This document shows, piece after piece, positions 5,398-56,601 of a stretch of 64,000 bases of DNA (position 1 is the stretch's first letter; the number at the start of each line of letters is the position of its first letter). The position numbers were made by a program, and so were the translations under genes. Source of the stretch: Candidatus Daviesbacteria bacterium GW2011_GWA1_41_61. Lineage in GTDB: Bacteria > Patescibacteriota > Microgenomatia > Daviesbacterales > UBA10151. The notes beneath the pieces were generated by a model. It was not told where the DNA came from and did no database searches. It saw nothing but the letters and a program-made list of their open reading frames with translations. The stretch spans positions 307,663-371,662 of the forward strand of contig LCBT01000001.1 of the NCBI GenBank assembly GCA_000997385.1. Reading direction: 5' to 3'.

Positions 5398-5399
5398 AA

Positions 5400-7351: not shown

Positions 7352-7357
7352 AATTTT

Positions 7358-28368: not shown

Positions 28369-29193
28369 TCAGGCAGTAATCGGCCGGGCTTGCAAGATAT
28401 AAAAATTACCTTTTTCTAGAGCCCATTCAATATCTTGAGGGTAACCATAATGACTTTCAATTACTTTACCCAAATCTGCCAGCTTTTGAACCTGTTGGTA
28501 AGTCAAAGCTTGTTTACTACCATTCTCATTAGAAAGCTGAACTTCCTTATTTTCTCCATCTTTAAAAATGAGCATTCTTTCTTGGGTTTGGATATCAATA
28601 CTTTTTATCTTTAAAGTATTTTTGTCTGCTACAAAGTTATCAGGGGTAATCATCCCCTGGACTAAATACTCTCCCAAACCAAAACCTGCCTCTATCATTA
28701 TTTCACCATCATTTTTAGTAACCGGGTTTTGGGTAAACATCACCCCAGACACCTCACTTTCCACCATCTTTTGAACTACCACTGCTACTACCAGTTGATC
28801 TTCCGATAAATTTTGTCCAGCAGTATAAGATAAAACCCTTTCAGATCTGATGGAGTTCCAACACTTTCTGATATTTTCGATTAAGTCAGCCCTGGTTACA
28901 TTCAGATAACTCTCCAGCTGTCCGGCCCAAGAGGCAGTTTTAGAGTCTTCAGCAATAGCAGAGGAGCGCACAGCTACTCGCTCTGTTTCTAACCCATTAA
29001 AAGCTTGAAGGATCTCTTCTATAACATCAACAGGAAGCTCATTATTTACAAACTGCCTATAAGTTTTGGCAGTCACTACAAATCCAGGAGGTACTGGGAT
29101 GCCAGCTTGAGTCATCTCCCCCAAAGAAGCTCCTTTCCCCCCAACCTCTGCCACATCCTCCTTAGAAATCTGTTTAAAAGTTTTAATATACAT
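28369..29193 (-). CDS. standalone PPDK_N (pyruvate phosphate dikinase / PEP synthase N-terminal ATP-grasp) domain protein
   Basis: MYIKTFKQISKEDVAEVGGKGASLGEM matches the N-terminus of PEP synthase and rifampin phosphotransferase. 274 aa. Lacks the swivel and TIM-barrel domains. Confidence 0.8.
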   Translation of the reverse strand: MYIKTFKQISKEDVAEVGGKGASLGEMTQAGIPVPPGFVVTAKTYRQFVNNELPVDVIEEILQAFNGLETERVAVRSSAIAEDSKTASWAGQLESYLNVTRADLIENIRKCWNSIRSERVLSYTAGQNLSEDQLVVAVVVQKMVESEVSGVMFTQNPVTKNDGEIMIEAGFGLGEYLVQGMITPDNFVADKNTLKIKSIDIQTQERMLIFKDGENKEVQLSNENGSKQALTYQQVQKLADLGKVIESHYGYPQDIEWALEKGNFYILQARPITA

Positions 29194-31975: not shown

Positions 31976-33496
31976 TTAACTCTCTTCTTTAGAGCGGTAG
32001 GTTAAAGCCTCTGCCACATATTCTACTGAAATACTTTCTGATGAAGCTAAATCAGCAATAGTTCTAGAAAGCTTTAAAACCCGGTGATAACCCCTGGCTG
32101 ATAAGTTCATCTGGGAGATGGCTAACTTTAAAAGCTCCAAACCTTCTGGGGTAATCTGGCAAAACTGTTTTATATGCGGATTGCCCATCTCGGAGTTGGT
32201 TAAAATGCCCAGTCCTTGAAATCTTTTTAGCTGAATCTGCCTGGCTGCTTCTATCCTGGCTCTAATGGCTGCAGAATCCTCTGCCTCCTCTTGACCCGTC
32301 AGTTTATCCACATCGACTGCCGGCACATCTAAATGAATATCAATCCTATCCAAGAGTGGTCCGGAGATCCTTTTTTTATACCTGGCTATTTGCCCGGGCA
32401 TACAACAACAGTTTCTGTTGGGACTGCCTAAGCTGCCACAGGGACAGGGATTGTGAGCCGCCAGGAGGATAAATTGAGAGGGGAAGGTTAAAGTGCCCGA
32501 GCTTCGAGAGATGGTTACTTTCCGATCTTCCACCGGTTGTCTTAAGGCTTCTAAAACTTGCCGGGGGAATTCCGGCAGTTCGTCCAAAAACAACACCCCC
32601 CGATGAGCCAAAGAGACCTCTCCCGGTTTGATATTATTTCCCCCGCCGATAATTCCCACATAAGAGGCAGTATGATGAGGAGATCTAAAGGGCCTTTTAG
32701 TAATCAATGGTTGGGAAGATGTTAAGTTCCCCGAGACAGAGTAGATCTTGGTGACCTCTAAAGCTTCCTCTTTACTCATAACAGGCAAGATAGAAGCAAA
32801 AGCCCTGGCCAAAAGCGTTTTTCCAGCTCCGGGAGGACCTTTTAAAATGATGTTGTGCGCCCCGGCAGCAGCTATCTCCATTGCCCTTCTAGCTTGATGT
32901 TGGCCTTTAATATCCTTAAAGTCATACTCAAAGGTAGCTCCATCAGTTAAATTTAAATCTGTTAAAGGCTGAGGGGAGATGGCTAAAGTTTTATTTAAAA
33001 ATTTAAAAACCTCTAGCAAATTTTTAAAGGGGTAAACTTCGATCCCTTCCACTACCGCTGCCTCTAAGGCATTATCACAAGACACAAAGATCCTTTTTAA
33101 ACCTACAGATTTAGCCAAAATAGTATAGGATAACACTCCATGAGTTGCCCTTAAGCTGCCATCCAAAGACAGCTCTCCTATAACTAAAGTATCAGATAAA
33201 TCCACTTCCAGCTGCTGGGAGGCTAAAAGCAACCCCAAGGCAATAGGTAAATCAAAAGCCGGCCCTTCTTTAGGCAAATCAGCCGGGGCTAAATTGACGG
33301 TAATCCTTTTAGCTGGAAAGTCTGCCCCGCAGTTTCGAAGAGCAGACCTGACCCTTTCCCTGGACTCCTCGACAGCTCGATCTGCCAAACCCACTAAGGT
33401 AAAAGAAGGCAGTCCTTGAGCAGCAATATCCACCTCTACTTCTACAGGCACAGATTCCAGCCCTACATTAGCCCCAGAGATCACCTTAGCCAGCAT
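31976..33496 (-). CDS. YifB/ComM-family Mg-chelatase-like AAA+ ATPase
   Basis: N-terminal Lon-like domain (MLAKVISGANVGLESVPVEVEVD), Walker A GPPGAGKT, and full length (506 aa). Confidence 0.9.
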   Translation of the reverse strand: MLAKVISGANVGLESVPVEVEVDIAAQGLPSFTLVGLADRAVEESRERVRSALRNCGADFPAKRITVNLAPADLPKEGPAFDLPIALGLLLASQQLEVDLSDTLVIGELSLDGSLRATHGVLSYTILAKSVGLKRIFVSCDNALEAAVVEGIEVYPFKNLLEVFKFLNKTLAISPQPLTDLNLTDGATFEYDFKDIKGQHQARRAMEIAAAGAHNIILKGPPGAGKTLLARAFASILPVMSKEEALEVTKIYSVSGNLTSSQPLITKRPFRSPHHTASYVGIIGGGNNIKPGEVSLAHRGVLFLDELPEFPRQVLEALRQPVEDRKVTISRSSGTLTFPSQFILLAAHNPCPCGSLGSPNRNCCCMPGQIARYKKRISGPLLDRIDIHLDVPAVDVDKLTGQEEAEDSAAIRARIEAARQIQLKRFQGLGILTNSEMGNPHIKQFCQITPEGLELLKLAISQMNLSARGYHRVLKLSRTIADLASSESISVEYVAEALTYRSKEES

Positions 33497-33604
33497 ACCT
33501 TGAGTTTACCAAAAAATATAGGATAGTAATATAGGAAATTAACACCACCTCTAGAACATCTTTTTAGGATTGATTTAAAACCCTAAATTATCTAGACTAA
33601 TGAT

Positions 33605-36451
33605 GTGCCCAAAGATTTAACTGCTCTTTTTTATCCCCAATCCATCGCTGTTTTAGGAGCATCACGTTCTCCTCAAAAAATAGGGGCGGTTGTTTTAAAA
33701 AATATCATTGACTCCCACTTTAACGGTTCAATTTACCCCATCAACCCTCAAGCACAGTCCCTTAACGGCTTAAAGTGTTACCCTGATTTAAGCTTCCTCC
33801 CCCACACCCCCGATCTGGCTATTATCTGTCTTCCTGCCTCATCAATAGTGGAGATACTCAACCAGATAGGAAGAAAGGGGGTTAAAAATGTGGTGGTGTT
33901 CTCAGCCGGTTTTAAAGAGAGCGGAGAGGAAGGAGAGGCTTTAGAAAATCAGTTAGTAGAGATAGCCCAAAAATATCAATTGAATATTTTAGGACCTAAT
34001 TGTTTAGGTTTTGCCAACAATCTCTGCCCCATAAATGCCACCTTTGGAGAGATTGTCAGTCAAATAGGGAACCTGCGTTTTATCTCCCAATCCGGAGCGA
34101 TCGCTGCCGGTCTTTTTGACTGGTTTAAAGTTAGCGGCATAGGGTTTTCTCAATTTGTAACCTTAGGGAATAAGGCAATTTTAAACGAAAATGATCTCTT
34201 AGAGTATTTTGCCGATCACCCGATTTCCATCTCTCAAGAAGGCCTATCTGAGGTGAGTCCCATTGGGATGTATCTGGAATCAATTTCTGACGGGCCAAAT
34301 TTTCTACGTTTAACTGGCCAAATGTCTAAAAAAGATCCCATTTTTATTATTAAACCTGGAAAAACTAAAGAGGCTGCCAAAGCGATGCAATCTCATACCG
34401 GAGCTATTGCCGGGCAAGATGAGGTCTTGGAGGCAGTTTTAAATCAGGCTGGGGTGATCCGTTGCCAAACCCTGGAAGATTTCTTTGATCTATCCCGGGC
34501 CTTTGCCTGGGAAAACGCTCCGCAGGGACCTCAAGTAGCTATTATCTCCAATGCCGGAGGTCCGGCAGTCATCTCAGCTGATGCCGTGATAGAGGAAGGA
34601 TTAGAGTTAGTCCAGTTTGACAGCCCAACTAAAGAACATCTGGCTCAAATTTTACCCCGGGCCTCAACCATCTTAAACCCGGTGGATGTGTTAGGAGATG
34701 CTTTAGCACAGCGTTTTGCTCAAGCTGCCGAGATTATCCTTCAAGGGAATCAATCTCAGGCGTTGGTGGTTATCTTAACGCCTCAGTTGATGACTCAAAT
34801 TGGCCAAACTGCCCAAAATTTAGGAACCCTTTCCCAAAAATACCACAAACCAATCTTTTGTTCCTTTATTGGGGGAAGCCGGATTGCCGAAGGGGAACAA
34901 AAATTGAACGAGTACAAAATTCCTTCTTTTCGTTTTCCAGAACGGGCGATTGCTGCCGTTGGAGCCATGTGGCGCTGGAAAAAACAACAAACTGAACAAA
35001 AAGAGGGTTCATTAACTACTACAGAAGTTCCCTCTAAGATAAGTGCTATAGAAAAAATTATTCAAAACGCCCTGGAAAATAACCAAAAAACCTTGGATAA
35101 TCTTCAATCTAACGACCTGATATCCAAACTGGGTATTCCTACCCCCCCTACCTTGGAAGCGGCAGATCTAAACCAGGCCAAGGATTTTGCTCAAAGCAGC
35201 GGCTGGCCGGTTGTTTTAAAACTTTCCTCACCCGGGCTATTACATAAAAAAGAAATAGGAGGGATTATAACCAATGTTTATAACTGTCACCAACTGGAGA
35301 CAGGCTGGGAAGCGCTGCAAAGAAAGATTACCCAGCTTGATAGTGCCATCCAAGATCATATCAAAATCCAGATTCAAAAAGAGATTGCCCAAGGAATAGA
35401 AACAATCGTCGGGATAAAACATGACCCTACTTTTGGGCCAGTACTGCTCTTTGGCGCAGGAGGCTCTTTGGCCGAACTGATTGCCGACAAAAACATGCAT
35501 CTTTTACCCATAGATCTGACTCAAGCTCAAATATTAGTAAAACAATCCAAAATTTATCCCCTTCTCCAGGGCAAACAAGGGGAACCTCCTTACTTATTAG
35601 ATAAACTCTATCAAACCATCGTCCAGATGGCTAAATTGTCAGAGGTGACTACCGAAATTTCAGAGATGGAAATCAATCCTTTGATTATCACTTTAAATAA
35701 TGTCTGGGCAGTAGATAATAAAGTCATCCTTAAAAAGGGAGAAGAAAAAACTGTACCTAAACCTCAGTTTCGATTGGCCACAACTTTGGAACACACCCAC
35801 CTGGTCAGCAACTTCCACTACTTTACTTTCACTACAAACCAACCCCTCATTTTCCGGCCAGGACAATATATCAGCGTCAAAGTAGCCGGTGACAGAATCA
35901 ACTGTTATTCTATTGCCGGGCAAGATAAACCTAGTGAATTTAATTTACTGGTCAATGTGACACCTGCCGGGCCGGGATCCAAATTTTTTGAAAACTTAAA
36001 AGTGGGAGAAAAAATTACTTTTCTTGGTCCGTTTGGAACTTTTGCCTTCAGTCCCGATGATGGTTCCAGTCATCTGTTATTTTTGGCCACCGGCAGCGGG
36101 TTGGCCCCCTTGATCTATATGATAAATAAAATTCTCCATGAAGATGGTGAACAAAAACAAATCACCTTATATCTGGGATTTAATACCCATCAAGATATCT
36201 TCTGGTTAGACAAGTTCCAAAAATTACAGGCCCAACATCCTAACTTCAATTACCATATTATAGTTTGGAAACCAGATACCAACTGGCAGGGAGAAACAGG
36301 TTTTATCACCCAAGCCATCGAGAAAAATCTTCCCGATACTACTAACTGTTCAGCTTACCTTTGCGGAAATAAGGGGATGATTGTTGACGCCATAAAAGTT
36401 ATAATAGAACGCGGTTGTCCCAAAGATCGGATTTACACCGAAAAATTTTAG
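33605..36451 (+). CDS. ADP-forming acetyl-CoA synthetase (fused alpha and beta domains) with a C-terminal FNR-like FAD/NAD(P)-binding oxidoreductase domain
   Basis: N-terminal CoA-binding domain (IAVLGASRSPQKIG), succinyl-CoA-synthetase-like and ATP-grasp domains. The C-terminal region of about 240 aa has the FNR-family RPGQYISVK, ATGSGLAPL and YLCGNKGM motifs. Confidence 0.8.
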   Translation: MPKDLTALFYPQSIAVLGASRSPQKIGAVVLKNIIDSHFNGSIYPINPQAQSLNGLKCYPDLSFLPHTPDLAIICLPASSIVEILNQIGRKGVKNVVVFSAGFKESGEEGEALENQLVEIAQKYQLNILGPNCLGFANNLCPINATFGEIVSQIGNLRFISQSGAIAAGLFDWFKVSGIGFSQFVTLGNKAILNENDLLEYFADHPISISQEGLSEVSPIGMYLESISDGPNFLRLTGQMSKKDPIFIIKPGKTKEAAKAMQSHTGAIAGQDEVLEAVLNQAGVIRCQTLEDFFDLSRAFAWENAPQGPQVAIISNAGGPAVISADAVIEEGLELVQFDSPTKEHLAQILPRASTILNPVDVLGDALAQRFAQAAEIILQGNQSQALVVILTPQLMTQIGQTAQNLGTLSQKYHKPIFCSFIGGSRIAEGEQKLNEYKIPSFRFPERAIAAVGAMWRWKKQQTEQKEGSLTTTEVPSKISAIEKIIQNALENNQKTLDNLQSNDLISKLGIPTPPTLEAADLNQAKDFAQSSGWPVVLKLSSPGLLHKKEIGGIITNVYNCHQLETGWEALQRKITQLDSAIQDHIKIQIQKEIAQGIETIVGIKHDPTFGPVLLFGAGGSLAELIADKNMHLLPIDLTQAQILVKQSKIYPLLQGKQGEPPYLLDKLYQTIVQMAKLSEVTTEISEMEINPLIITLNNVWAVDNKVILKKGEEKTVPKPQFRLATTLEHTHLVSNFHYFTFTTNQPLIFRPGQYISVKVAGDRINCYSIAGQDKPSEFNLLVNVTPAGPGSKFFENLKVGEKITFLGPFGTFAFSPDDGSSHLLFLATGSGLAPLIYMINKILHEDGEQKQITLYLGFNTHQDIFWLDKFQKLQAQHPNFNYHIIVWKPDTNWQGETGFITQAIEKNLPDTTNCSAYLCGNKGMIVDAIKVIIERGCPKDRIYTEKF

Positions 36452-36454
36452 CTT

Positions 36455-38257
36455 ATGTCAAACAAAGAAGTTTTTTCTGTGAAGATTGGCGGGCAGGCTG
36501 GACAAGGAGTCAAATCAGCGGGACTCATGTTGGCTAAAGTTGCCAACCGCTCGGGATACCATATCTTCACTTACACCGAATACCCTTCTTTAATCCGGGG
36601 CGGACACAATGTTATGCAGATTAATATCTCTCCCCGTCCGGTTTTAGCCCCTTTTAAAACAACCGATCTTTTAGTAGCTTTAAATAAAGAAACTGTTGAC
36701 CTCCATCTAGAAGAACTCCAAGACGGCGGGGGTATTATTTTTGAAGGTGGAGATAATTCCAGCCTTCCTCAAGCTTCTAAAAACCTAAATCTTTACCCTA
36801 TCCCTCTATCTAAATTAGCTACAGACACTGGGGAAAAAGAGCTTTTAATAAACAGTGTGGCTTTAGGAGCCATCCTGGCTATCCTGGGAGGACAATTATC
36901 CACGCTTCAGCAACTTATTGGGGAAGAGTTTGCCAGTAAAGGCAACCCGATAACTTTAGCCAACAACCAAGCAGCCCAAGCAGGATATGACTATGCAGTC
37001 AAAAACTTTGCCCAAAAGAGGGAAAATATATTAAAGCCACTTGAGGAAAGCGGACCTGCCTCCCTGAGTCGAAGCGGGCAAAAGATGATCGTCAACGGCA
37101 ACGAGGCAATATCTTTAGGAGCTATTGCCGGGGGTCTCCAGTTTGCCTCTATTTACCCCATGACTCCCATCACTAACATTTTACATTTTTTGGCTTTGCA
37201 CCAAGATAAATACGGTTATATTTATAAACAACCGGAGGATGAAATTGCGGCTATCAACATGGCCATCGGAGCCTCCTTTGCCGGAGCCAGAGCCATGACA
37301 GCTACCTCCGGGGGTGGTTTTTGTTTGATGAGTGAAGGTTATGGCTTGGCCGCCATCACGGAAACACCTCTAGTTATTATCGAAGGAATGCGTGGAGGGC
37401 CAGCCACCGGCCTACCCACCTGGAGTGGACAAGGGGATCTGCAGTTTGTGCTTCATGCCCACCAAGGGGATTTCCCCCGTCTGGTTTTAGCCCCCGGTGA
37501 TGCCCAAGAAGCTTTCATCTTAACCAGACAAGCTTTTAATTTAGCTGACAAATACCAAACCCCAGTGGTTATCTTAGTCGACAAAAATATCTGTGAAAGT
37601 GACCAAAGCTTCCCCGTCTTTGATACCGCCTTTGAAGTTAACCGCGGGAAGATGACCCGAGAAACTATCCCCGGCTATCAACGGTTTGCTGATAATGGCG
37701 ATGGGGTATCGCTGCGCGCCACTCCTGGGAGTGGTAATTTCTTTATTGCTAACTCTTACGAGCATGACTCTTTAGGACTGACTACTGAAAGAATAAATGA
37801 CCGTCAAACCCAAATGGCCAAAAGGATGACTAAGCTTGAGAGTTGCCAAAGAGAAGACCTTCCCTCTCCCCAGCTTTTTGGGCCGGAGGAAGCTGATATT
37901 ACCATTGTCTCCTGGGGAAGTAATAAAGGGGTCATTTTAGAAGCCGTCAAGCACTTTGATAAAGTTAATTTCTTACATCTGACTTGGCTTAGCCCTTTCC
38001 TTACACCAGAGATTAGAAAGAGGCTAGAGCAAGCCCGTTATTTAATTGATATAGAATGTAACTACTCCGGGCAGTTGGCCAACTTGATCAAAGAAAAAAC
38101 CGGGGTAGATATTTTAGATAGAATGTTAAAAGTTGACGGACGGCCCTTTTTTGTCGAAGAAATCGTGGAGAAAATTACCAGTGTTTTGGAAGTAACCGCT
38201 AACAAGGCAAGTCAGTCCCACCTGCCCAATGGTCAGGTGGAGAACATAATAAATTAA
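36455..38257 (+). CDS. 2-oxoacid:ferredoxin oxidoreductase alpha subunit (fused gamma-alpha type)
   Basis: N-terminal gamma-like domain (VKIGGQAGQGVKSAG) followed by the POR/KOR alpha transketolase-like domain. 600 aa. Confidence 0.85.
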   Translation: MSNKEVFSVKIGGQAGQGVKSAGLMLAKVANRSGYHIFTYTEYPSLIRGGHNVMQINISPRPVLAPFKTTDLLVALNKETVDLHLEELQDGGGIIFEGGDNSSLPQASKNLNLYPIPLSKLATDTGEKELLINSVALGAILAILGGQLSTLQQLIGEEFASKGNPITLANNQAAQAGYDYAVKNFAQKRENILKPLEESGPASLSRSGQKMIVNGNEAISLGAIAGGLQFASIYPMTPITNILHFLALHQDKYGYIYKQPEDEIAAINMAIGASFAGARAMTATSGGGFCLMSEGYGLAAITETPLVIIEGMRGGPATGLPTWSGQGDLQFVLHAHQGDFPRLVLAPGDAQEAFILTRQAFNLADKYQTPVVILVDKNICESDQSFPVFDTAFEVNRGKMTRETIPGYQRFADNGDGVSLRATPGSGNFFIANSYEHDSLGLTTERINDRQTQMAKRMTKLESCQREDLPSPQLFGPEEADITIVSWGSNKGVILEAVKHFDKVNFLHLTWLSPFLTPEIRKRLEQARYLIDIECNYSGQLANLIKEKTGVDILDRMLKVDGRPFFVEEIVEKITSVLEVTANKASQSHLPNGQVENIIN

Positions 38258-38275
38258 CCTGTTACTTATCTACAT

Positions 38276-39124
38276 ATGGATAAACTTGAAGATTTACAGA
38301 CACCAACATGGTGTCCTGGTTGTGGCAACTTTGGGCTATGGGGGGCTTTTAAAAATGCTGCTTTAAAAAAAGGCTGGGATAACACCAACTCAGTTTTAGT
38401 AGCCGGGATTGGCTGCCATGGTAATATCTTAAACTTTATTCGGCTGACCTCTTTTGAAGGACTCCATGGCCGGGCTTTGCCTTTAGCCACCGGTATAAAA
38501 ATAGCCAACCACCGTCTTAATGTCTTTGTCTTTACCGGAGATGGAGATTGTTTAGGGGAAGGAGGTAATCATTTCATCCATACCTGCAGACGTAATCATA
38601 ATTTAACTGTTTTACTTCATAACAATGCTATTTATGGGCTGACCACCGGTCAAACTACCCCCACCTCTCCTCACAGCTTCAAATCTAAATCTACCCCCCA
38701 GGGTAACCCGGACTGGCCCATCTCTCCTTTAGGTTTGGCCATAGCTTCTGGAGCTACCTTTGTAGCCCGGGGTTATAGCGGCAACCTACCTAAGTTAACC
38801 GAGCTGATTATTCAAGCCAATGAGCACCAAGGGTTATCCGTAGTAGAGATCCTCCAACCCTGTACTACTTGGAATAAGGAGTATACTCATCCTTTCTTTC
38901 AGGAAAATACTTACTTCTTGGGCGAAAACCACGACACTTCCAGCAAAGAAGCCGCTTTTGACAAATCCTTACAGTGGGGAGTCAAACAAATTCCCCTAGG
39001 GATTTTTTACCAGGTAGAAGCTCCTACCTTCGAGTCCCAGTTGCTACAAATAGCCGAAAAACCCTTAATAGAAAGCTCTCCTAAGGGGAGAGACCTCTCT
39101 GAGCTACTTAAAAAATATACTTAG
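38276..39124 (+). CDS. 2-oxoacid:ferredoxin oxidoreductase beta subunit (TPP-binding)
   Basis: CPGCGNFG Cys motif and TPP-binding GDGDC...GGNHFIH. Confidence 0.85.
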   Translation: MDKLEDLQTPTWCPGCGNFGLWGAFKNAALKKGWDNTNSVLVAGIGCHGNILNFIRLTSFEGLHGRALPLATGIKIANHRLNVFVFTGDGDCLGEGGNHFIHTCRRNHNLTVLLHNNAIYGLTTGQTTPTSPHSFKSKSTPQGNPDWPISPLGLAIASGATFVARGYSGNLPKLTELIIQANEHQGLSVVEILQPCTTWNKEYTHPFFQENTYFLGENHDTSSKEAAFDKSLQWGVKQIPLGIFYQVEAPTFESQLLQIAEKPLIESSPKGRDLSELLKKYT

Positions 39125-39134
39125 TCCATTAAAA

Positions 39135-39181
39135 AAAGTTCAAATTTTTTAAGGTTTTTTTTTCTTCAAAATTTGAACTTT
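39135..39181. repeat. 14-bp perfect inverted repeat (AAAGTTCAAATTTT ... AAAATTTGAACTTT) with a T-rich loop, probably a terminator after the OFOR operon
   Basis: Visible directly. Follows the stop codon at 39124. Confidence 0.4.
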
Positions 39182-39525
39182 GGCTCATAGTTCTGGTATT
39201 ATTTCTAAATCATATGGCTAGAGAAGTACATACACCAGATTTTGGACAGCAATTGTTATTTGAAACAACAGCGGAAACCCAACAAGCAGGTTTCGTCGAG
39301 CCGATTATGAAACTATTGACGTAGTAAAAAGAGACTTGGGAAATGATTGTTCGTGGGCGTTAAGTCTAAAAAATGATATTGATAGAGAAATTGAATGGAG
39401 TGATATAATGTGATGAATATATTCAACAAAATAGAAACTGTTTAACTCAAGGCTTTGTAGAGTCATTAGAAGCTACCCTTTCTGATTTGAGTGATTTACG
39501 GAAAGGGGGTTAGAACCAAGATAAT

Positions 39526-40074
39526 ATGTCAGCAGAACATCAACATCAAGAAAAGTGGTTAGGATTACGATTTGTCAGAATTGAAGATTTATTATTAAGT
39601 GATATACAAGAATACCTAGCTGAATGGAGATTGGAAGTAGTTCGAATGAAAGATGTATTTCCAGAAGGATTTGAGCCTTTTACAATTACCCTTCCTTCCC
39701 GAGATTCGAATTATACTGGTGGTGGGTTAGTAAGACATATTCCTGTTACCTTAGGAGCAGGAGTGAAAGGTACTCCTGAAGAAATTATATCTTGGGATTT
39801 TTCTAGATTAGTAGCATGTGGAAATAGGTTTAAACTTAGTGTATTACAACCAAGCAAAGCTTTGAATTTACATATATTTACTACCTATCCAAATAATTGG
39901 GATAGATATAATGATATGGCTATAGGGATGCGTGATCTTGAATGGGCAGAATTAGATAGTAAAAATAGAGAGATGACACTTAGGTCTAGGGATGCTTCGT
40001 ACAAAATTGAGTCCAATGGAAGACATATTTTTACTCACAGAGGTATCCCAATGGAATCTGCTTTTAACCCTTAG
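39526..40074 (+). CDS. hypothetical protein (182 aa)
   Basis: No family recognised. The ribosome-binding site is weak. Confidence 0.35.
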   Translation: MSAEHQHQEKWLGLRFVRIEDLLLSDIQEYLAEWRLEVVRMKDVFPEGFEPFTITLPSRDSNYTGGGLVRHIPVTLGAGVKGTPEEIISWDFSRLVACGNRFKLSVLQPSKALNLHIFTTYPNNWDRYNDMAIGMRDLEWAELDSKNREMTLRSRDASYKIESNGRHIFTHRGIPMESAFNP

Positions 40075-40165
40075 TATGTAAAATAATTGAGTAAATCAAT
40101 CTCATTTTGAACAGACATCTCAGCTATTGCAAATTTAAATTTCGGTCCTTATACTTTAAAAAGTC

Positions 40166-40513
40166 ATGGATGAACAAACCAACAATCCACAAGCCCCAGC
40201 AACGCCACCAGTTGATCCTGATCAAATCCGGACTAGTCATCAACCAAATCAACCTACAGAACAACCAACTGGTGACCAAGAAGTCCAAATAGGGAATTAT
40301 AAAGTTCAGGTTAAACGGAGTCTTTGTATCGGAGCTGCCTCTTGTGTAGCCATTTCTCCTACCACTTTCCAGCTGGATGGTGAAAATAAAGCTGTTATCC
40401 AGCAAGGTAGCACTGACAGTGAAAATAATATTTTAATGGCAGCCCAGGCCTGTCCAACTAAAGCTATTGTTATTGTTGATACCCAAACCAATAATCAAAT
40501 TTGGCCTGAGTAG
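40166..40513 (+). CDS. single-cluster ferredoxin with a Pro/Gln-rich N-terminal extension
   Basis: C-x2-A-x2-C ... CP pattern (CIGAASC ... AQACPTKAI), as in [3Fe-4S]/[4Fe-4S] ferredoxins with one Cys replaced. Confidence 0.55.
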   Translation: MDEQTNNPQAPATPPVDPDQIRTSHQPNQPTEQPTGDQEVQIGNYKVQVKRSLCIGAASCVAISPTTFQLDGENKAVIQQGSTDSENNILMAAQACPTKAIVIVDTQTNNQIWPE

Positions 40514-40530
40514 TATTAAATTATTTTAAG

Positions 40531-41448
40531 ATGACCTCCAACCACACTAGAGGAATATATTTAGCCTTAGTTGCAGCTTTCATTTCCGGAGTAGCCATCT
40601 TTGTCAATAAGTTTGCCGTCGGTATAATTACCCCTCCTTTAGTCTTTACCGCCACCAAAAACACCGCTGTTGGACTGCTAATTTTGGGTCTTCTACTTTT
40701 GACCAGGAAGTGGAAAGAAGTTAAAAACCTCAGCCGCCGTGAATCACTTTATTTAATATTAATCGGTATTGTGGGCGGATCAATCCCTTTTTATCTTTTT
40801 TTCACCGGGTTGTCTGAAGTTTCTGCCACGAGCAGCGCTTTAATTCATAAAACTTTAGTCTTTTGGGTGGCCATACTGGCAGTGGTCTTTCTTAAAGAAA
40901 AACTATCTAACTGGCAAATTTTAGCAGTGATGCTTTTATTTGGCAGCAATTTTATCATCGGAGGGTTTCAAGGATTTGCCTTTTCTAAAGGAGAACTTTT
41001 AATACTTATCGCCACCATCCTTTGGGCAATAGAAAATATTCTGGCCAAAAAAATATTACCTTCAGTTGATCCCGATATTGTAATTGCAGCCAGGATGGGA
41101 TTTGGGTCTTTAATACTTTTGAGTACTGCCGTAGTTACAGAGCCCACAGCTTTAGGTAAAATTTTAGTCCTTACTCCCAGCCAATGGTTTTGGATGATTC
41201 TCACTGCAGCCACACTTTTAGGTTATGTAATGAGTTGGTACCGGGCCTTAAAACTGGCCCCGGCTATTACCGTCGCTTCGGTTTTAGTTGCCTCCACCAT
41301 AGTCACCAATATCCTCTCGGCAGTTTTTATTACCCGGGTTTGGACTTTAGAGATGGCTTTTCAATCTGGGTTAATACTGGTAGGTCTTTTAATCTTTTAC
41401 TTTGCCGCTAAAAGATTAAAAACTACGGCCAAGATAGCCACAGTTTAA
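40531..41448 (+). CDS. DMT-superfamily (EamA-like) transporter
   Basis: Ten predicted transmembrane helices and a duplicated EamA organisation. Confidence 0.8.
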   Translation: MTSNHTRGIYLALVAAFISGVAIFVNKFAVGIITPPLVFTATKNTAVGLLILGLLLLTRKWKEVKNLSRRESLYLILIGIVGGSIPFYLFFTGLSEVSATSSALIHKTLVFWVAILAVVFLKEKLSNWQILAVMLLFGSNFIIGGFQGFAFSKGELLILIATILWAIENILAKKILPSVDPDIVIAARMGFGSLILLSTAVVTEPTALGKILVLTPSQWFWMILTAATLLGYVMSWYRALKLAPAITVASVLVASTIVTNILSAVFITRVWTLEMAFQSGLILVGLLIFYFAAKRLKTTAKIATV

Positions 41449-41452
41449 ACTC

Positions 41453-42157
41453 TTAAAACAACAACCGCAGTGTTTCCTTAGTCCAAAAAGAAAGCTTTTC
41501 TTCTTCCTTCTTCGTTAAAATCTTGACCACCAAATTCCAATGAACCGCCACAATGTGGCCAATTTGCAGCCCGGGAACAAAGCTCTTATCAAACGGGACA
41601 CTGCAACCTCTGACTGTTAGTTGATAACCTAAACCTTCTTCCTTTAAAGAGTTTAAACTGATCTGGGCTTTTGGGCCAACTATCTTTTCCACCTTCCCCC
41701 AACGGATCATACAGTTATTAATGGAATCTAAATTAAAAGGAACCGACCCGCTGACCCGGCCAACCCCAACGTGTAACACCTGAAACAGGTGGTTAGGGAT
41801 AAATACCTTAGGTTTCTTTTGTTTTAGTTCTTCTATCAAAAAACCTGGTACCCCTTGTTTTTCCAAGTTCTCTAAAAGAAGCTGATAATCCTCCACTTTG
41901 GCTTTTTTAAGTTGATCATTTCCCAACCAATAACTTTCTATCACCTCATAAGAAAAAATTGGTAAATTAGTAATGGCGGAGATCGTTTTCAGGTATGGAT
42001 AAAGGCCGATAAATTTGGAAATCTCTTTCTCTATTTCTTGACACTCTCCCCCAATAACACATCTTTTAAATTTTGCCGGGGCACTATCTTTTCCGCAATA
42101 ACCCAAGAAGTTAGGTGGCAGAGCAAAACGGGAAACCAATTGTAGATTCTTACTCAT
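41453..42157 (-). CDS. hypothetical protein adjacent to the hydrogenase cluster
   Basis: 234 aa, no family recognised. Confidence 0.4.
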   Translation of the reverse strand: MSKNLQLVSRFALPPNFLGYCGKDSAPAKFKRCVIGGECQEIEKEISKFIGLYPYLKTISAITNLPIFSYEVIESYWLGNDQLKKAKVEDYQLLLENLEKQGVPGFLIEELKQKKPKVFIPNHLFQVLHVGVGRVSGSVPFNLDSINNCMIRWGKVEKIVGPKAQISLNSLKEEGLGYQLTVRGCSVPFDKSFVPGLQIGHIVAVHWNLVVKILTKKEEEKLSFWTKETLRLLF

Positions 42158-42203
42158 CCGCCTTAAATCATACTACATGGTGATGGTAAAATTAAACTTA
42201 AAG

Positions 42204-42605
42204 ATGAAAGTTTATGTTTTTGGAAATCAAGACCTCCCCCAGGACAATTTGGCCTTTCAAGTAGCTGATAAACTTCAAAACAAGATCAAAGGTGTGGAGT
42301 TTACAACAGTCAAGCTAAATGAAGATTTACCGTTTACTGATGAAAAACAGGTAGTAATTTTAGACACAGTTGAGGGGATAAAAAAAGTAGAGATTATTGA
42401 TGAAAACGATCTGGACAAATTAACTTTATCGCCTAAAACCTCGGTCCATGATTTTGATTTAGGATTTCAACTGAAGTACTTAAAAAAACTGGATAAGTTA
42501 CAAAAAGTGACTATTATCGGCTTGCCGCCAAAAGGAGAAATTAACTACTTTCTGATCCAGTCAATCTTAAGAAAGTTAGTGGCACAAGACATGCAGGGAT
42601 CGTAA
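42204..42605 (+). CDS. hydrogenase maturation protease (HycI/FrhD-like)
   Basis: VFGNQDLPQDNLAFQVADKL and TSVHDFDLG motifs resemble the GNxLxxDDG...SxH pattern of [NiFe] large-subunit C-terminal endopeptidases. Confidence 0.65.
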   Translation: MKVYVFGNQDLPQDNLAFQVADKLQNKIKGVEFTTVKLNEDLPFTDEKQVVILDTVEGIKKVEIIDENDLDKLTLSPKTSVHDFDLGFQLKYLKKLDKLQKVTIIGLPPKGEINYFLIQSILRKLVAQDMQGS

Positions 42606-43846
42606 GCCCGGATAATCTTCTCAGCATCAAGACGCAGAGTTTGTTCATCCTTATCCAAATTTTCATTGAAGTATTTTTTTAAATCACTTTCAATATTGAT
42701 CTGGTTTTGGGCAGTCGGCACAATCACATCATAATCTTCAATCAGCCCTTTCTCACCTACTACCGCTTTGTGATACAAAATACCCCGGGGGGCTTCCACC
42801 ACTCCGACCCCTATTCCGGCCTGGAAAGACTTTCTGACCGGGCCCTCTTGATTAATGCGGATAGTTTTGAGGATATCTAAGGCATCATCAACACATTGCA
42901 GTATTTCTATGGCTTGAGCCAGATTGTTATGATAAATATTATTAGAAGGGAATGTCTGCAAATAAGTTTGACAATCCATCTTGGTTTGAGGATGGAGTAG
43001 ATCTTTATTGAAATTAATTCTGGCCAAAGCTCCCACCAGGTAGTCCTCATGGGAATCAGAAAAAACATAACCCTCGGCTTGAGAATAGGGTATAACCACT
43101 GATTTTAAAAAGTCATGGAACTTCTCCTCAGGTACCCGTTTACCGCTGGAATTAATAATCTGCCCCTCGAGAAAATCAAACTGCCGGTCATTCCTTAAAC
43201 ATAAATAATCAGAGTTTCTCATTAAACTCTGAGGCCACTGGGAAAAAGTCTTAATCCCCCTTAAAACTTGCGGCCTGATCGCTTCCAGCTTGGAGATTAG
43301 CTGCGGGAATAAACTTGGATCAGGTAATTTTAAAAATCCGCCAATAGTCGGCAGGGGGGCATGGATGGCTGCTCCAATGATAACATTGGTAATTTCAGTT
43401 CCCGCTTTTTTGATATCAAAGGAGTCATGAAGCAAGGTATATCCGATGTTGCCTGGGTCATCAGGAATATCCAAAATTGAGTCAATACCTAAAATATCCG
43501 GCAGTACAAAAAAATAAAGGTGCAGGGCATGGTCCCGGATGATCAAGCCATCATAAGACAGCCGGCGGAGCAGTTTCGTTTGTTCTGTCACCTTAATCTC
43601 CTGGGATTTTTCCAAAGCCTCCAAAGCAGCAAAAAGATGAGCTACCGAGCAAGTGCCACAGATCCTGGATAAAAAAGAAGGGACCGCAATAAGGGGTTTC
43701 CCTTTAACAGCCTCGGTATAAAAGCGCCGGTAGTCTTTAATAATAAATTTTAAATCCGTCACCACGCCTTCTTCGACAGTCACCTTAAGGCCTGCTGAAC
43801 CTTCAATTTTAGTAATGTTATCAATGGTTATCTGTCGGTTATGCAT
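42545..43846 (-). CDS. [NiFe] hydrogenase large subunit
   Basis: N-terminal RICGTCSVAH (RxCGxCxxxH) and C-terminal DPCMSCATN Ni-binding Cys pairs. 433 aa. Confidence 0.85.
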   Translation of the reverse strand: MHNRQITIDNITKIEGSAGLKVTVEEGVVTDLKFIIKDYRRFYTEAVKGKPLIAVPSFLSRICGTCSVAHLFAALEALEKSQEIKVTEQTKLLRRLSYDGLIIRDHALHLYFFVLPDILGIDSILDIPDDPGNIGYTLLHDSFDIKKAGTEITNVIIGAAIHAPLPTIGGFLKLPDPSLFPQLISKLEAIRPQVLRGIKTFSQWPQSLMRNSDYLCLRNDRQFDFLEGQIINSSGKRVPEEKFHDFLKSVVIPYSQAEGYVFSDSHEDYLVGALARINFNKDLLHPQTKMDCQTYLQTFPSNNIYHNNLAQAIEILQCVDDALDILKTIRINQEGPVRKSFQAGIGVGVVEAPRGILYHKAVVGEKGLIEDYDVIVPTAQNQINIESDLKKYFNENLDKDEQTLRLDAEKIIRAYDPCMSCATNFLKIDWIRK

Positions 43847-44336
43847 CTGGGGAAATATTAAAAAGCTTCAGATATTTAGTTAAGATCTCCAAAAATATTG
43901 ACACAGTCATGGGGCAACCTGGCACCTGATCATCAACCTTAATTACCTCATCCAGTTTCTTTACCTTCTGGCTGTAATCAAAATGATGTAGATAATAAGC
44001 GATTTTTTGATTAACCTCGTCACTGACAAATTCGTTACGGCTGGCAGAGGGCATCCCGGTGCAGGCACAAGCTCCAACTGCTACCACATATTTGGCATGA
44101 CCCCTAATCTTTTTAACTTCCTCTGCCTGGGTATCCGACGAGACAGCTCCCTCAATAAAAGCCACATCAAGACCTGCAATTTCATTTTTTGATTTAAGAG
44201 CCTTTAAATAACGGAACTCCACCACTTTTTTCCATTCATCAAGATGATCATTTAGTAGTTCTGTAAATAAAATAGTGCTGTCTTCACTACAGGTAAAAGA
44301 AAACCAACCAACTACCAGCTTTTTCTGCTGATCCAT
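43839..44336 (-). CDS. [NiFe] hydrogenase small subunit (NuoB-like, single cluster, 165 aa)
   Basis: GACACTG and PGCPM motifs. The first motif reads TCSED instead of CCxxE. Confidence 0.65.
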   Translation of the reverse strand: MDQQKKLVVGWFSFTCSEDSTILFTELLNDHLDEWKKVVEFRYLKALKSKNEIAGLDVAFIEGAVSSDTQAEEVKKIRGHAKYVVAVGACACTGMPSASRNEFVSDEVNQKIAYYLHHFDYSQKVKKLDEVIKVDDQVPGCPMTVSIFLEILTKYLKLFNISPDA

Positions 44337-44382
44337 ACATTTAGTCTACCATAGTATAATTAGGGAGTAATTACATCTCATT

Positions 44383-44595
44383 ATGTGCTTAGCTATTCCT
44401 GGAAAAATCATCAAAGTTGAAAAGCGGCAGGTTTTAGTTCAGTACCCCGGACAGACCCGTTTGGCTTTGGTAGGAGATGAAGCGGTCAAAGTTGGAGACT
44501 GGGTTTTAGTCCAAATGGGAATTGTTATTAAAATTCTTTCTTCTAAAGAAGCCCAAATTGCCCAAAAAAGCTGGATAAAATTTGACAAAAGATAA
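44383..44595 (+). CDS. hypC: hydrogenase maturation factor HypC/HybG
   Basis: MCLAIPGKIIKV N-terminus and 70 aa. Confidence 0.85.
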   Translation: MCLAIPGKIIKVEKRQVLVQYPGQTRLALVGDEAVKVGDWVLVQMGIVIKILSSKEAQIAQKSWIKFDKR

Positions 44596-44773
44596 AAATC
44601 GTCTTATGCTAAGAAGGTCTGCAGGTGCACAGGTAGACTTGCCAAAAAAAGTAGTTGCTCTAGACCTCTGCTTTTGAGGGACATTTCTGCAAAGAGCACA
44701 CGCAAAATAGGTGCTTTTAAATGGGGAAAAGGCTAGTACCGAAAGTGGAGCTTTTTTTCCAAATTGTTGGTAA

Positions 44774-44809
44774 ACAAAAAGGGACCGTAAGAAGTGGGTC
44801 CCTTTTTGT
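44774..44809. terminator. bidirectional rho-independent terminator, directly 3' of rnpB
   Basis: ACAAAAAGGGACC-gtaagaagtg-GGTCCCTTTTTGTT. Confidence 0.7.
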
Positions 44810-44810
44810 T

Positions 44811-45160
44811 CGCTTAGGAAGTCTGTAAGCCAGATTCTGTTTTGGTCAAAATTTCGACCTAGATGAAATCTATCTTTAAAGTGATGCTTACCCCGATTTT
44901 ATCAGGGTTTAAGTCACTCTAACCTCGCCTTTTTAGGCGGGTGCTCCTTACTTTGACTATCGGGCGAGCAGCCCAGTCAATTCTAGGATTACAGCGGGGA
45001 GGATTGCCCTTTTCACTCCGGCTTGACCCGGCATTAGTCTCTGTTGCTCTAACTAGGTCTTACGACTCCTCGCCTTACGGCGGGCACCCTGCTCTGCGCT
45101 GTCTGGACTTTCCTGAGCATACCGGAACGATACACCCTATCATCCAACTTCCTAAGCTGC
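44811..45160 (-). ncRNA. rnpB: RNase P RNA (bacterial type A-like)
   Basis: The minus strand reads AGGAAAGTCCAGAC...GCAGGGTGCC, GAGCAACAGAGAC...CCGGG, GAGTGAAAAGGGC and ...GGAGCACCCGCCTAA, matching conserved P4/P10-12/P15 regions. An 11-bp P1 helix forms between the 5' GCUUAGGAAGU and the 3' ACUUCCUAAGC. A TATAAT box sits at 45165-45170. Not in any ORF. Confidence 0.85.
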
Positions 45161-45189
45161 CCATATTATACCCGAAGTTTGAAAAGTTA

Positions 45190-46170
45190 TCAAATAGGGC
45201 TGGCGATATCTGTTTTTAAAACTTCGCTTAAAATAACTTGGATCACCACAGCTATTGGTACAGCCAGCAAAGCTCCACCAATCCCTAAAAGTCTACCCCC
45301 AATGGTCACCGCTAAAATAACTAAAATAGGGTTTAAACCAACCGCTCTTTTCATCACCTGAGGAACTACGACGTGACTTTCAATCTGCTGGATAGCAAAA
45401 TAAAGTCCGGCTACTATCGCTGCCAAAAACGGTGAGGTAGTAAGAGCGATCAGGATAGCGGGAATAGCCGCAATAATCGGTCCAATTACCGGCACTACCT
45501 CAAGCAAGGCTCCTAAAATAGCTAAAGGCAAGGCAAACTCAACCCCTAAAAGTACCAAACCAACATAATAGAAAACCCCCACTAAAACCGAGAGGAACAG
45601 TTGCCCCCGCAGCCAAGCTCCCAACTTCTCCTCCAGTTTACCAATAAGCTTTCCCACCTGCTGCTGGCGACCAGCAAAAAATGAAGCTACAAGATTCTCT
45701 ATCTTTTCCCGGTCTAAAAGCAGATAAAACGTCAGTACAACCACTGTAGCAAAGGCAATTAAATTCCCAAAAAAGCTAAGAATAAAATCAATGATCCGCC
45801 GGGAAAACTCTGAGAACTCTTGGCGGACAATGGATTGATCAATAAAGTTGGTCTGAAGTAACGAGGAAGTAGCTTCAGCTAACCTTTGAGTTAAACTGCT
45901 TGTTTGGTTTAAAAGAGGAGTCAGTCCCACCGCTATCAGGCTGGAAAAACTCCCTATAACCAGGATGAAGATCAGGGCAATGGCTAAAGGCCGGGGGATC
46001 TTCCATTTGGCTAACCTTTCCACCAAAGGGGCTAAAGCAGACATTAAGATAAAGGCCAAAAAGATTAATAGGATAATATCTAAAATTAAAAAAAGCACCC
46101 ACAGAAGGAGTAAAAACCCAGCCACAAAGAAAATGGTTTTATGAGAGATATCAATCTTTCTTGTCATCAC
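45190..46170 (-). CDS. AI-2E family transporter (PerM/YhhT-like)
   Basis: Eight-transmembrane topology and conserved AI-2E/UPF0118 organisation. Confidence 0.75.
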   Translation of the reverse strand: MMTRKIDISHKTIFFVAGFLLLLWVLFLILDIILLIFLAFILMSALAPLVERLAKWKIPRPLAIALIFILVIGSFSSLIAVGLTPLLNQTSSLTQRLAEATSSLLQTNFIDQSIVRQEFSEFSRRIIDFILSFFGNLIAFATVVVLTFYLLLDREKIENLVASFFAGRQQQVGKLIGKLEEKLGAWLRGQLFLSVLVGVFYYVGLVLLGVEFALPLAILGALLEVVPVIGPIIAAIPAILIALTTSPFLAAIVAGLYFAIQQIESHVVVPQVMKRAVGLNPILVILAVTIGGRLLGIGGALLAVPIAVVIQVILSEVLKTDIASPI

Positions 46171-56556: not shown

Positions 56557-56601
56557 CATTATACAGCAATAACTTGTCATTGCCATAAAAAAACTCCTAT
56601 A

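Follow-up and report, generated by a model that had tools for sequence, protein, structure and literature searches.

A conserved fusion of an ADP-forming acyl-CoA synthetase with an FNR-type flavoprotein domain in a ferredoxin- and hydrogenase-linked gene block of Patescibacteria

Bacteria of the candidate phyla radiation (CPR, or Patescibacteria) combine very small genomes with the lack of a respiratory chain, which makes the redox balance of fermentation central to their biology. How such cells might dispose of both the acyl-CoA and the electrons that arise from 2-oxoacid oxidation is the question raised by a locus of the groundwater bacterium Candidatus Daviesbacteria bacterium GW2011_GWA1_41_61, which we analysed within a stretch of 64,000 nucleotides (contig LCBT01000001.1, positions 307,663 to 371,662; hereafter the window, in whose own numbering all coordinates are given). 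There, a single protein of 948 amino acids joins an ADP-forming acyl-CoA synthetase (ACD) to a flavoprotein domain of the ferredoxin-NADP reductase (FNR) superfamily, and its gene is followed by genes for a 2-oxoacid:ferredoxin oxidoreductase (OFOR), a ferredoxin and a two-subunit [NiFe]-hydrogenase. An earlier interpretation made from the letters of the window (the sequence-only reading) had called this architecture non-standard. We asked whether the fusion is real, whether both of its halves look active and which partners its redox half could serve.

The fusion gene (33605..36451, + strand) forms one open frame of 948 codons, starting at a GTG that aligns to the Met of homologues and free of stops and frame breaks, also at the junction between the two halves, where the sequence-only reading had thought an artefact conceivable. 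All the domains reported by Pfam exceeded their curated cut-offs, namely CoA_binding_2 (residues 13-138, 1e-23), Succ_CoA_lig (155-300, 7e-41), Ligase_CoA_2 (311-461, 1e-10), ATP-grasp_5 (489-709, 4e-55), FAD_binding_6 (729-814, 2e-9) and NAD_binding_1 (826-928, 2e-20), the last two being those by which the flavoprotein part had been expected to be recognisable. The ACD half (33605..35740, residues 1-712) carries the alpha and then the beta part on a single chain. Some 10 residues (710-720) link its ATP-grasp domain to the FNR domain of the FNR half (35753..36451, residues 717-948), which has no Fe-S domain. A complete ACD followed by a C-terminal flavoprotein domain, as previously claimed, is thus present, although the latter measures about 232 rather than about 240 residues. 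The motifs named earlier all lie in this half (RPGQYISVK at 751-759, GSGLAP at 830-835 and YLCGNKGM at 918-925). In an AlphaFold2 (AF2) model with a mean predicted local distance difference test score (pLDDT) of 85.4, low values were confined to the stretch 252-263 that immediately precedes His264, to residues 352-365 and to the linker of the alpha and beta parts (467-473); the FNR domain scored 80-93 and the 710-720 linker a moderate 65. The predicted template modelling score of 0.67 is at most suggestive as to how the ACD and FNR parts pack.

To place this architecture among relatives, we searched 5.8 billion proteins. At least 120 clusters (at 90% identity) of 922-975 amino acids, stemming from JGI, ENA, NCBI and Logan assemblies, shared 55-62% identity with the query over 97-100% of its length and had the same Pfam architecture, and the junction itself was conserved among homologues (AVD.KV.L ... 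P.F..A). When GTDB, represented by a single genome for each species, was scanned with an alignment across the junction, 28 species loci encoded an FNR orthologue; the ACD abutted the FNR in 26 of them and the remaining two ended at contig edges, while the best FNR-only matches beyond the fusion set showed 21-28% identity. One fusion lies on a closed chromosome (CP006914, WWE3 bacterium RAAC2_WWE3_1, locus L006). Given the continuous frame, the conserved junction, the number of clusters and the closed chromosome, we dismiss with near certainty both a chimeric assembly and read-through from one gene into another. The ACD-FNR fusion is real and under selection, and conserved in relatives, a point that the sequence-only reading had wanted checked. 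All the named hosts are Patescibacteria (Levybacteria, Daviesbacteria, Roizmanbacteria, WWE3 and 'Patescibacteria group'); automatic titles of metagenome-assembled genomes, such as 'uncultured Gammaproteobacteria', were judged untrustworthy. Existing annotations call members of the family 'acetate-CoA ligase' or 'acetyltransferase' and ignore the redox half.

Are both halves likely to be enzymes? Residue conservation was counted in an alignment of 120 fusion homologues. In the ACD half, 120/120 sequences have His264, located in the alpha part's SHTGA loop, and likewise His547 in the beta (ATP-grasp) part (LHKK.IGG), which aligns to the IHKSDAGG of 8wzu and which we take, after published ACD work, to be the second catalytic histidine. 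The SHTG stretch lines up with that of 8wzu, 2csu, 4xyl and 9y43, which are true ACDs; PatZ, whose ACD-like domain is non-catalytic, has a deletion there. The closest solved relative of this half is 8wzu, an ADP-forming 4-hydroxybutyrate-CoA ligase (1.6e-120); Foldseek matched its fold to 8wzu and 4xyl, and the domain set of the ACD superfamily is complete. Judged by these residues, the ACD half looks catalytically competent. As to a characterised substrate class, be it acetate, 4-hydroxybutyrate or 3-hydroxypropionate, all NCBIfam equivalog models stayed below their cut-offs (487.8 vs 567.15; 465.5 vs 1300).

In the FNR half, Y768, S769, T829, G830, Y918, G921, M925 and E946 were invariant across the 120 homologues, C920 was found in 118/120 and the C-terminal residue was F or Y in 100/120. 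GPGS occupies residues 789-792 and TGSG residues 829-832. The Arg of the flavin motif showed an either/or pattern: 88 sequences carry R764 with N766, 25 carry R766 with a non-basic residue at 764 (Ala in 22), Arg never occurs at both positions, and among the other seven sequences five have Lys764. This is the outcome expected from purifying selection on a flavin contact. The motifs of the FNR superfamily are present, that is, R-x-Y-S/T with its Arg displaced or kept, G-x-x-S/T, G-x-G-x-x-P, C-G and the C-terminal aromatic residue, and the FAD and NAD motifs align properly with those of MmoC, NqrF and GcoB, in line with the earlier claim. Hence, this half also looks catalytically competent from its sequence. 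Inspecting the aligned residues that follow strand two of the NAD domain did not yield a sound assignment to either NADH or NADPH; MmoC, BenC and NqrF use NADH.

The family to which the FNR half belongs bears on its possible partners. In a PDB sequence search the best match was 1tvc, the FAD/NADH domain of methane monooxygenase reductase (1.4e-29), followed by NqrF, GcoB and BenC; among NCBIfam models, MmoC scored 141.8 bits (2e-41) and BenC reached 1e-34; and Foldseek matched GcoB, NqrF and Cbr1 at probability 1.00, with 5ogx and 4u9u among the matches. The domain is therefore of the MmoC/BenC/NqrF class. A kinship with hydrogenase gamma subunits or PyrK, to which the sequence-only reading had pointed, was not borne out: the corresponding models reached 1.8e-13 to 5e-8, far under their cut-offs (HydG 32.5 bits, cut-off 650, 5e-8; ShyC 39, cut-off 600; PRK08345 50.4, cut-off 395), no hydrogenase gamma subunit was among the best 60 of 116 PDB matches, and the protein ends with its NAD domain (..YTEKF), without the [2Fe-2S] tail typical of gamma and PyrK. 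With 32-50 bits against 142 for MmoC, we rejected a HydG/ShyC or PyrK homologue at the family level. The domain could work like a diaphorase, yet it would not be a gamma subunit. The MmoC model, moreover, was matched only at positions ~127-343; its N-terminal [2Fe-2S] head is missing and the ACD stands upstream instead. Because the FNR half has neither a [2Fe-2S] tail nor a [2Fe-2S] head, it would need a separate one-electron partner.

A candidate for this partner is encoded close by. OFOR alpha (36455..38257, + strand, 600 aa, with fused gamma and alpha domains; Pfam POR, POR_N, PFOR_II) begins 3 nt past the fusion stop codon and scored 613.6 on TIGR03710 (cut-off 482.75); the thiamine pyrophosphate-binding OFOR beta (38276..39124, + strand, 282 aa; Pfam TPP_enzyme_C, PFO_beta_C) scored 294.4 on TIGR02177 (cut-off 261.9), so that the two-subunit OFOR recognised earlier passes both subfamily cut-offs. 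Cys13, Cys16 and Cys47 of the beta subunit occur in every one of 27 orthologues (100%), Cys196 in 93%, which corresponds to one [4Fe-4S] site; there is no delta or ferredoxin-like domain, and no Fer4 according to Pfam. Further downstream, a single-cluster ferredoxin of family Fer4_13 is encoded (40166..40513, + strand; Pfam 8.5e-11, 42.8 bits vs cut-off 24.5), whose nearest solved relatives are those of Pyrococcus, Thermotoga and M. tuberculosis (8amp). The sequence-only reading had called it Pf-type; this holds for the family fold and fails for the ligands, since the motif CIGAASC...CP has three cluster cysteines and carries Ala in place of Asp. Indeed, all 24 aligned orthologues read C-I-[GS]-A-[AG]-[ST]-C ... 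C-P (CxxAxxC...CP) with a C-terminal Q(V/I)WP, and the second ligand position is Ala in 24/24, where Pyrococcus has Asp and Thermotoga Cys. A 3-Cys motif of this kind predicts a [3Fe-4S] cluster, which the protein probably holds.

Between OFOR beta and the ferredoxin lies the short gene without a family that had been noted before (39526..40074, + strand, 182 aa). It is present, with no Pfam or NCBIfam family, but it is a strain-specific orphan rather than part of a conserved unit: no homologue was found in related loci, and the sole database match was an identical copy from the source genome. The gap is an insertion hot spot, in which relatives carry toxin-antitoxin or GIY-YIG genes. A further feature of the ferredoxin is its N-terminal tail (40166-40276, + strand), about 37 residues long, rich in Pro and Gln and probably disordered; a tail recurs with different sequence in the orthologues of L004, L021 and L029 and is absent from most others.

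As the sequence-only reading had stated, a two-subunit hydrogenase lies about 6 kb downstream (6.1 kb past the fusion stop codon). Its large subunit (42545..43846, - strand; Pfam NiFeSe_Hases), of the group 3b-related 'hyd2' type, is closest among solved proteins to the alpha subunit of sulfhydrogenase I from Pyrococcus/Thermococcus (9nez, 5yxy; ~1e-58), and both of its CxxC pairs are invariant (C63, C66, C418, C421). The small subunit (43839..44336, - strand) is truncated to 165 aa, aligns to the HydD model (261 positions) over positions 3-154 only and matches residues 49-149 of sulfhydrogenase delta 9e1j_A. Its cysteines C16, C90 and C141 are fully conserved and C92 occurs in 81% of orthologues, and the subunit would leave room for the proximal cluster only. 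At the usual N-terminal CxxC position it reads C16-S-E-D19, which suggests a proximal cluster held by three Cys and one Asp; the F420-reducing hydrogenase reportedly has such a cluster. No genes for hydrogenase beta or gamma subunits were found in the block. By these features (165-aa small subunit, HypC nearby, no beta/gamma) rather than by phylogeny, the enzyme is of the widespread CPR hyd2 type, for which Jaffe et al. 2020 (PMC7304191) described truncated small subunits (mean 164 aa), HypC nearby and absent beta/gamma subunits. The same work found NAD-binding hidden Markov model matches 'in the vicinity' of hyd2 on the other strand, considered the function of hyd2 uncertain and possibly supported 'with unknown genes', and left its diaphorase partners open. 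We infer that these NAD-binding matches are very probably the FNR half of the ACD-FNR fusion.

To see how constant this neighbourhood is, we ran tblastn with the window proteins against the fetched loci and counted only loci with the stated flank. The order is fixed: ACD-FNR, OFOR alpha, OFOR beta, ferredoxin and EamA on one strand, DUF6390 on the opposite strand, HycI on the fusion's own strand, the large and small hydrogenase subunits opposite, and HypC again on the fusion's own strand. Both OFOR genes follow the fusion in 21/22 loci whose flank reaches 2.5 kb or more; for the ferredoxin the count is 19/19 fusion loci (5.5 kb or more), and for hyd2 it is 17/18 (9 kb or more). The reciprocal search, anchored on the hydrogenase large subunit, yielded 80 metagenome loci; 20 of the 24 with at least 7.5 kb had an FNR within the flank (~10 kb), fused in 18 of those 20. 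Around unfused ACDs of other CPR (L035, L037, L038, L040, L045), no ferredoxin or hydrogenase was found nearby. A scan for promoters and terminators across 33000-45300 returned counts near the shuffled expectation (32 vs 24 ± 4.8 and 19 vs 15 ± 3.9), so that no operon boundaries could be drawn.

The remaining genes of the block look like maturation factors or transport proteins. HypC/HupF, a maturation chaperone (44383..44595, + strand; TIGR00074, 54 bits vs cut-off 48), adjoins the small-subunit gene in most loci, and a HycI-like maturation endopeptidase (42177..42605, + strand; Pfam HycI 6.7e-6, TIGR00072 7.9e-6 and under its cut-off) is present in 67/67 hyd2 loci with flank. DUF6390 (41453..42157, - strand; Pfam 7.5e-33) occurs in 33/47 hyd2 loci whose flank measures 1.5 kb or more, with orthologues in L002-L029 and L084-L143, and has the invariant residues C21, C33, C39, C149, H123 and H206. 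Its AF2 model (pLDDT 84) comprises a helical N-domain and a C-terminal barrel for which Foldseek gave no significant PDB match and weak HypC matches (3vyr_A, 2z1c_B; E ~0.03-0.05), and its stretch N-C149-M-I-R-W-G-K-V recalls the start of the window HypC, M-C-L-A-I-P-G-K-I. DUF6390 may thus be a HypC-like maturation factor for hyd2. We had also considered it as an Fe-S partner, which is less likely given that all it offers is a weak HypC-like barrel. As DUF6390, HycI and HypC all look like maturation factors, the block has no carrier candidates other than the ferredoxin and the FNR. The EamA-family membrane transporter (40531..41448, + strand; Pfam 1e-30) is found in most complete blocks and has no obvious redox role. 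Some soil contigs (L124-L129, L147, L149, L154) are without HypC and DUF6390.

Does the pairing of FNR and ferredoxin exist outside this block? We searched the FNR domain alone, exhaustively, against 1.84 billion representatives, and besides fused representatives the closest relatives were standalone proteins of ~230 aa with 35-42% identity. The contexts of four of these were examined. In L164, L165 and L166, an unfused FNR of ~232 aa (39-41% identity) is in each case directly followed by an orthologous ferredoxin with the signature CIGA(A/T)SC...CPT(K/R)AI...Q(V/I)WP. The three settings are unrelated, since one pair comes behind an ATP synthase operon, one follows a suf operon and one precedes a tRNA-synthetase gene, and no ACD, OFOR or hyd2 was found near these pairs. 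Next to the fourth relative, P0144 in L167, there is no ferredoxin gene. The adjacency outside the block, in three of four standalone cases, shows that the FNR and this ferredoxin are a gene pair in their own right. In a rough neighbour-joining tree, the fused FNRs formed one clade nested among the standalone ones and the 2Fe-2S-headed NqrF/BenC-like proteins branched further out; the tree has no support values. Finally, one hyd2 block (L134) contains a natural split: an intact FNR gene of 231 aa, which starts with ATG and encodes the two Pfam domains, stands directly upstream of OFOR alpha, while an unfused, intact ACD, which ends 8 residues past ATP-grasp, lies 2.6 kb off behind a znuABC operon on the other strand. 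This indicates that the two activities are separable and that the FNR stays with the redox genes.

Considering these observations together, we think it reasonably probable that the fusion is a bifunctional enzyme which consumes both OFOR products, acyl-CoA and reduced ferredoxin, with the ferredoxin as the hub and hyd2 as an alternative outlet. The two halves would be catalytically independent on one polypeptide. The OFOR, with its single cluster and no delta subunit, would make acyl-CoA and reduce ferredoxin; the ACD half would convert acyl-CoA to the free acid with formation of ATP, through a phospho-histidine relay from His264 to His547; and the FNR half would act as a flavin-dependent NAD(P)H:ferredoxin oxidoreductase whose cognate one-electron partner would be the 3-Cys ferredoxin of the block. 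Since the OFOR has no ferredoxin domain and the small subunit of the hydrogenase is truncated to its proximal-cluster part, both enzymes would need a soluble external carrier. Reduced ferredoxin could be re-oxidised by two routes, either through the FNR domain onto NAD(P)+ or through the minimal hyd2 onto protons, with release or uptake of H2. Electrons could also run in reverse from NAD(P)H through the FNR and the ferredoxin to hyd2, in which case unrelated parts would replace the missing beta/gamma diaphorase of group 3b. All the activities and cofactors in this scheme, acetyl-CoA as the substrate, the use of NADH or NADPH, the direction of the electrons and any physical complex are predictions made from sequence. 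A stronger version, according to which the ACD-FNR and the 3-Cys ferredoxin are the missing electron partners of hyd2 and form with the OFOR a compact, physically coupled unit, in which a single chain would carry the ATP-forming step and the NAD(P)H/H2 redox valve and acyl-CoA turnover would be matched to electron disposal stoichiometrically or allosterically and the 3b diaphorase would have been re-invented in modular form, is one that we can offer only tentatively and hold to be rather doubtful as a joint claim.

Several points weigh against the bifunctional scheme. The AcCoA-syn-alpha score of 487.8 falls below the cut-off of 567.15, so that acetyl-CoA as the substrate is an assumption; the nesting of fused among standalone FNRs comes from a tree without support values; the proposed interaction of FNR and ferredoxin draws on gene proximity, which cannot prove interaction; and the benefit ascribed to the covalent fusion with an ACD is an after-the-fact rationalisation. 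Furthermore, [3Fe-4S] clusters often have potentials higher than is ideal for proton reduction, and a 3-Cys ferredoxin that probably holds one may be too oxidising, which weakens the H2-evolving branch. There are also exceptions in gene content. Two loci have the fusion without hyd2 within 10 kb (L001, L017), L008 is without the usual genes in the 3.3 kb remaining past the ferredoxin, and four loci have hyd2 without the fusion (L099, L138, L140, L154); near three of the latter (L099, L138, L140), no substitute redox partner was found by Pfam among the sampled flanking open reading frames (ORFs), which encode CofD, a malic enzyme, a DsbH-like thioredoxin, the E1 subunit of 2-oxoglutarate dehydrogenase or proteins of no family. 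In L135 the ferredoxin and the fusion are kept with no OFOR between them, the order being ferredoxin, short-chain dehydrogenase and fusion, with a D-2-hydroxyacid dehydrogenase two genes further.

The sequence-only reading had suggested that the FNR-like domain might be the missing diaphorase partner of the hydrogenase. In its fullest form, this would mean that the FNR and the ferredoxin sit in a stable complex with hyd2 in place of beta/gamma, with the ACD as a mere anchor, and that the assembly serves chiefly, like Pyrococcus sulfhydrogenase I, as a hydrogenase linked to NAD(P) (H2 + NAD(P)+ <-> NAD(P)H). The lack of beta/gamma genes beside a truncated small subunit, the linkage in both directions (17/18 and 20/24 loci), the distance of unfused CPR ACDs from hydrogenases, and the partners left open along with the NAD-binding matches on the other strand in PMC7304191 all fit such an arrangement, and to this extent the suggestion stands. 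It is harder to reconcile with FNR-ferredoxin pairs that have no hydrogenase nearby (L164-L166), with the loci that have either the fusion or hyd2 but not both, with the opposite strands and the intervening transporter gene, which mean that this is not one operon, and with the absence of gamma homology at the family level; we therefore regard a stable complex of this kind as possible but rather unlikely. A different acceptor altogether could be a free flavin, as for the flavin reductases Fre and LuxG, or the FNR could act in oxygen or iron detoxification. The domain is matched by the NCBIfam models Fre (3e-23) and LuxG (1.5e-17), it has no Fe-S domain of its own, like Fre, and P0144 has no ferredoxin next to it; with a ferredoxin in the flank of 19/19 fusion loci and directly adjacent in three of four standalone cases, and with RxYS-type flavin residues that are conserved or compensated, as fits a bound prosthetic flavin, we consider such an acceptor quite unlikely.

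Two further alternatives concern the ACD half. PatZ/Pat (9isq, 9it0) is the top whole-chain Foldseek match of the fusion model and the only solved architecture found that has, like the fusion, an ACD-like body with a C-terminal catalytic domain, and JGI pipelines name many family members 'acetyltransferase'. One could thus imagine the ACD part as a non-catalytic sensor or scaffold that gates the FNR, as the sole enzyme, through binding of acyl-CoA or nucleotide. PatZ, however, has a GNAT domain where the fusion has the FNR, and is without the catalytic SHTG histidine, whereas both catalytic histidines and the SHTG loop are retained in all 120 homologues; similarity is far higher to real ACDs (1.6e-120) than to PatZ (2e-90), and the gene adjoins an OFOR that would produce acyl-CoA, all of which makes a non-catalytic role very unlikely. 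Alternatively, the ACD could work in the assimilatory direction and activate acetate at the expense of ATP, with hyd2, the FNR or both reducing ferredoxin at the expense of H2 or NAD(P)H, and the OFOR acting as pyruvate synthase (from acetyl-CoA and CO2) towards phosphoenolpyruvate (PEP) synthase and gluconeogenesis. ACDs, OFORs, FNRs and hydrogenases are all reversible in principle, the window also has genes for PEP synthase and enolase, and a related WWE3 genome came from acetate-stimulated sediment (PMC3812714). Set against this, pyruvate synthesis wants a donor of very low potential, a role to which a ferredoxin with three Cys and probably a [3Fe-4S] cluster is ill suited, the ACDs of fermenters normally run towards ATP, and the organisms are described as fermenters with sparse biosynthesis; we hold the assimilatory direction to be unlikely. 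The bifunctional enzyme with the ferredoxin as its hub thus remains the reading that we prefer, and within the reach of sequence comparison the coupling proposed by the sequence-only reading finds support.

How would the block compare with known systems? In Pyrococcus and Thermococcus as well as in anaerobic protists, a 2-oxoacid is turned into an acid, CO2 and ATP while electrons leave via ferredoxin, and the overall chemistry of these modules of pyruvate:ferredoxin oxidoreductase (PFOR), ferredoxin, hydrogenase and ACD would be that proposed here. In Daviesbacteria, by contrast, the parts lie in one conserved block, the ACD is covalently joined to a putative ferredoxin:NAD(P) reductase, and the hydrogenase is a soluble two-subunit relative of group 3b rather than a membrane-bound or [FeFe] enzyme. 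With regard to the ACD, the fused alpha-beta enzymes of Nitrosopumilus (8wzu) and Ca. Korarchaeum (ACD1, 4xyl) share with the fusion a five-domain body, the SHTG phospho-histidine loop and the second histidine, with a similarity of 1.6e-120 over residues 8-695; they stop after ATP-grasp, whereas the Daviesbacteria protein adds a flavoprotein domain of 232 aa. The reductase modules of MmoC, BenC, GcoB and NqrF, the closest relatives of residues 717-948 in sequence and fold, share with it the motifs for FAD and NAD(H) as well as the E-K-F at the C-terminal end. Their N-terminal plant-type [2Fe-2S] domain, however, is replaced in position by the ACD, and the likely acceptor in Daviesbacteria would be a separate 3-Cys ferredoxin of 4Fe-4S fold, unlike the fused [2Fe-2S] domain of these reductases. 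With regard to the hydrogenase, the alpha and delta subunits of the group 3b sulfhydrogenase I of Pyrococcus (alpha-delta-beta-gamma) are closest to the block hydrogenase, and the roles of gamma and beta could fall to the FNR and the ferredoxin. In contrast to the group 3b gamma subunit, the FNR is non-homologous (32-50 bits vs cut-offs of 395-650), has no [2Fe-2S] tail, is fused to an ACD and is encoded 6 kb from the hydrogenase on the opposite strand.

Taken singly, the domains are of known kinds, as are the OFOR and the hydrogenase clade. Our literature search for the fusion or for partners of hyd2 found no description, with most subscription journals lying outside its coverage. Kantor et al. 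2013 reported for WWE3 RAAC2 an ACD, a two-subunit PFOR or 2-oxoglutarate:ferredoxin oxidoreductase (OGOR) and a 3b-like hydrogenase, and did not mention the fusion. Thus, both the covalent ACD-FNR architecture and the way in which it is consistently paired with hyd2, a two-subunit OFOR and a 3-Cys ferredoxin appear to be undescribed so far. The block names concrete candidates for the partners of hyd2, namely the invariant 3-Cys ferredoxin and an FNR domain joined to an ACD, and the fusion could serve as a Rosetta-stone case in which substrate-level phosphorylation and ferredoxin:NAD(P) exchange provide two sinks for the two products of the OFOR. If this is true, metabolic models of Microgenomates and WWE3 would be refined, and a compact enzyme set leading from pyruvate to acetate, ATP and H2 or NAD(P)H would become available.

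Outside these main subjects, one of the hyd2 loci without the fusion deserves mention. On contig JAABUS010001798.1 (L140), a hyd2-type large subunit that is 71% identical to that of the window (10001-11299, + strand) lies 2.4 kb from a gene for 2-oxoglutarate dehydrogenase E1 (4702-7566, - strand). To our knowledge this enzyme is not to be expected in CPR bacteria; the contig is probably not of CPR origin and hints at a recent transfer of hyd2 outside the CPR.

Elsewhere in the window, a full-length PEP synthase/pyruvate phosphate dikinase of 820 aa (58786-61248, - strand) is adjoined by genes for enolase (57618-58802) and a D-2-hydroxyacid dehydrogenase (56554-57621), a setting that fits a fermenter, and a separate ORF of 274 aa (28369-29193, - strand) carries the ATP-binding PPDK_N domain only. 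An RNase P RNA of bacterial class A was recognised at 44810-45155 (- strand; Rfam 95.1 bits vs a gathering threshold of 100, E = 1e-29, full model 1-367). As this RNA fills the ~600 bp between HypC and an AI-2E transporter gene, the overlapping ORF of 92 aa (44941-45219, + strand) is considered spurious. The only tRNA gene of the 64-kb window encodes tRNA-Pro (GGG; 53470-53543, - strand).

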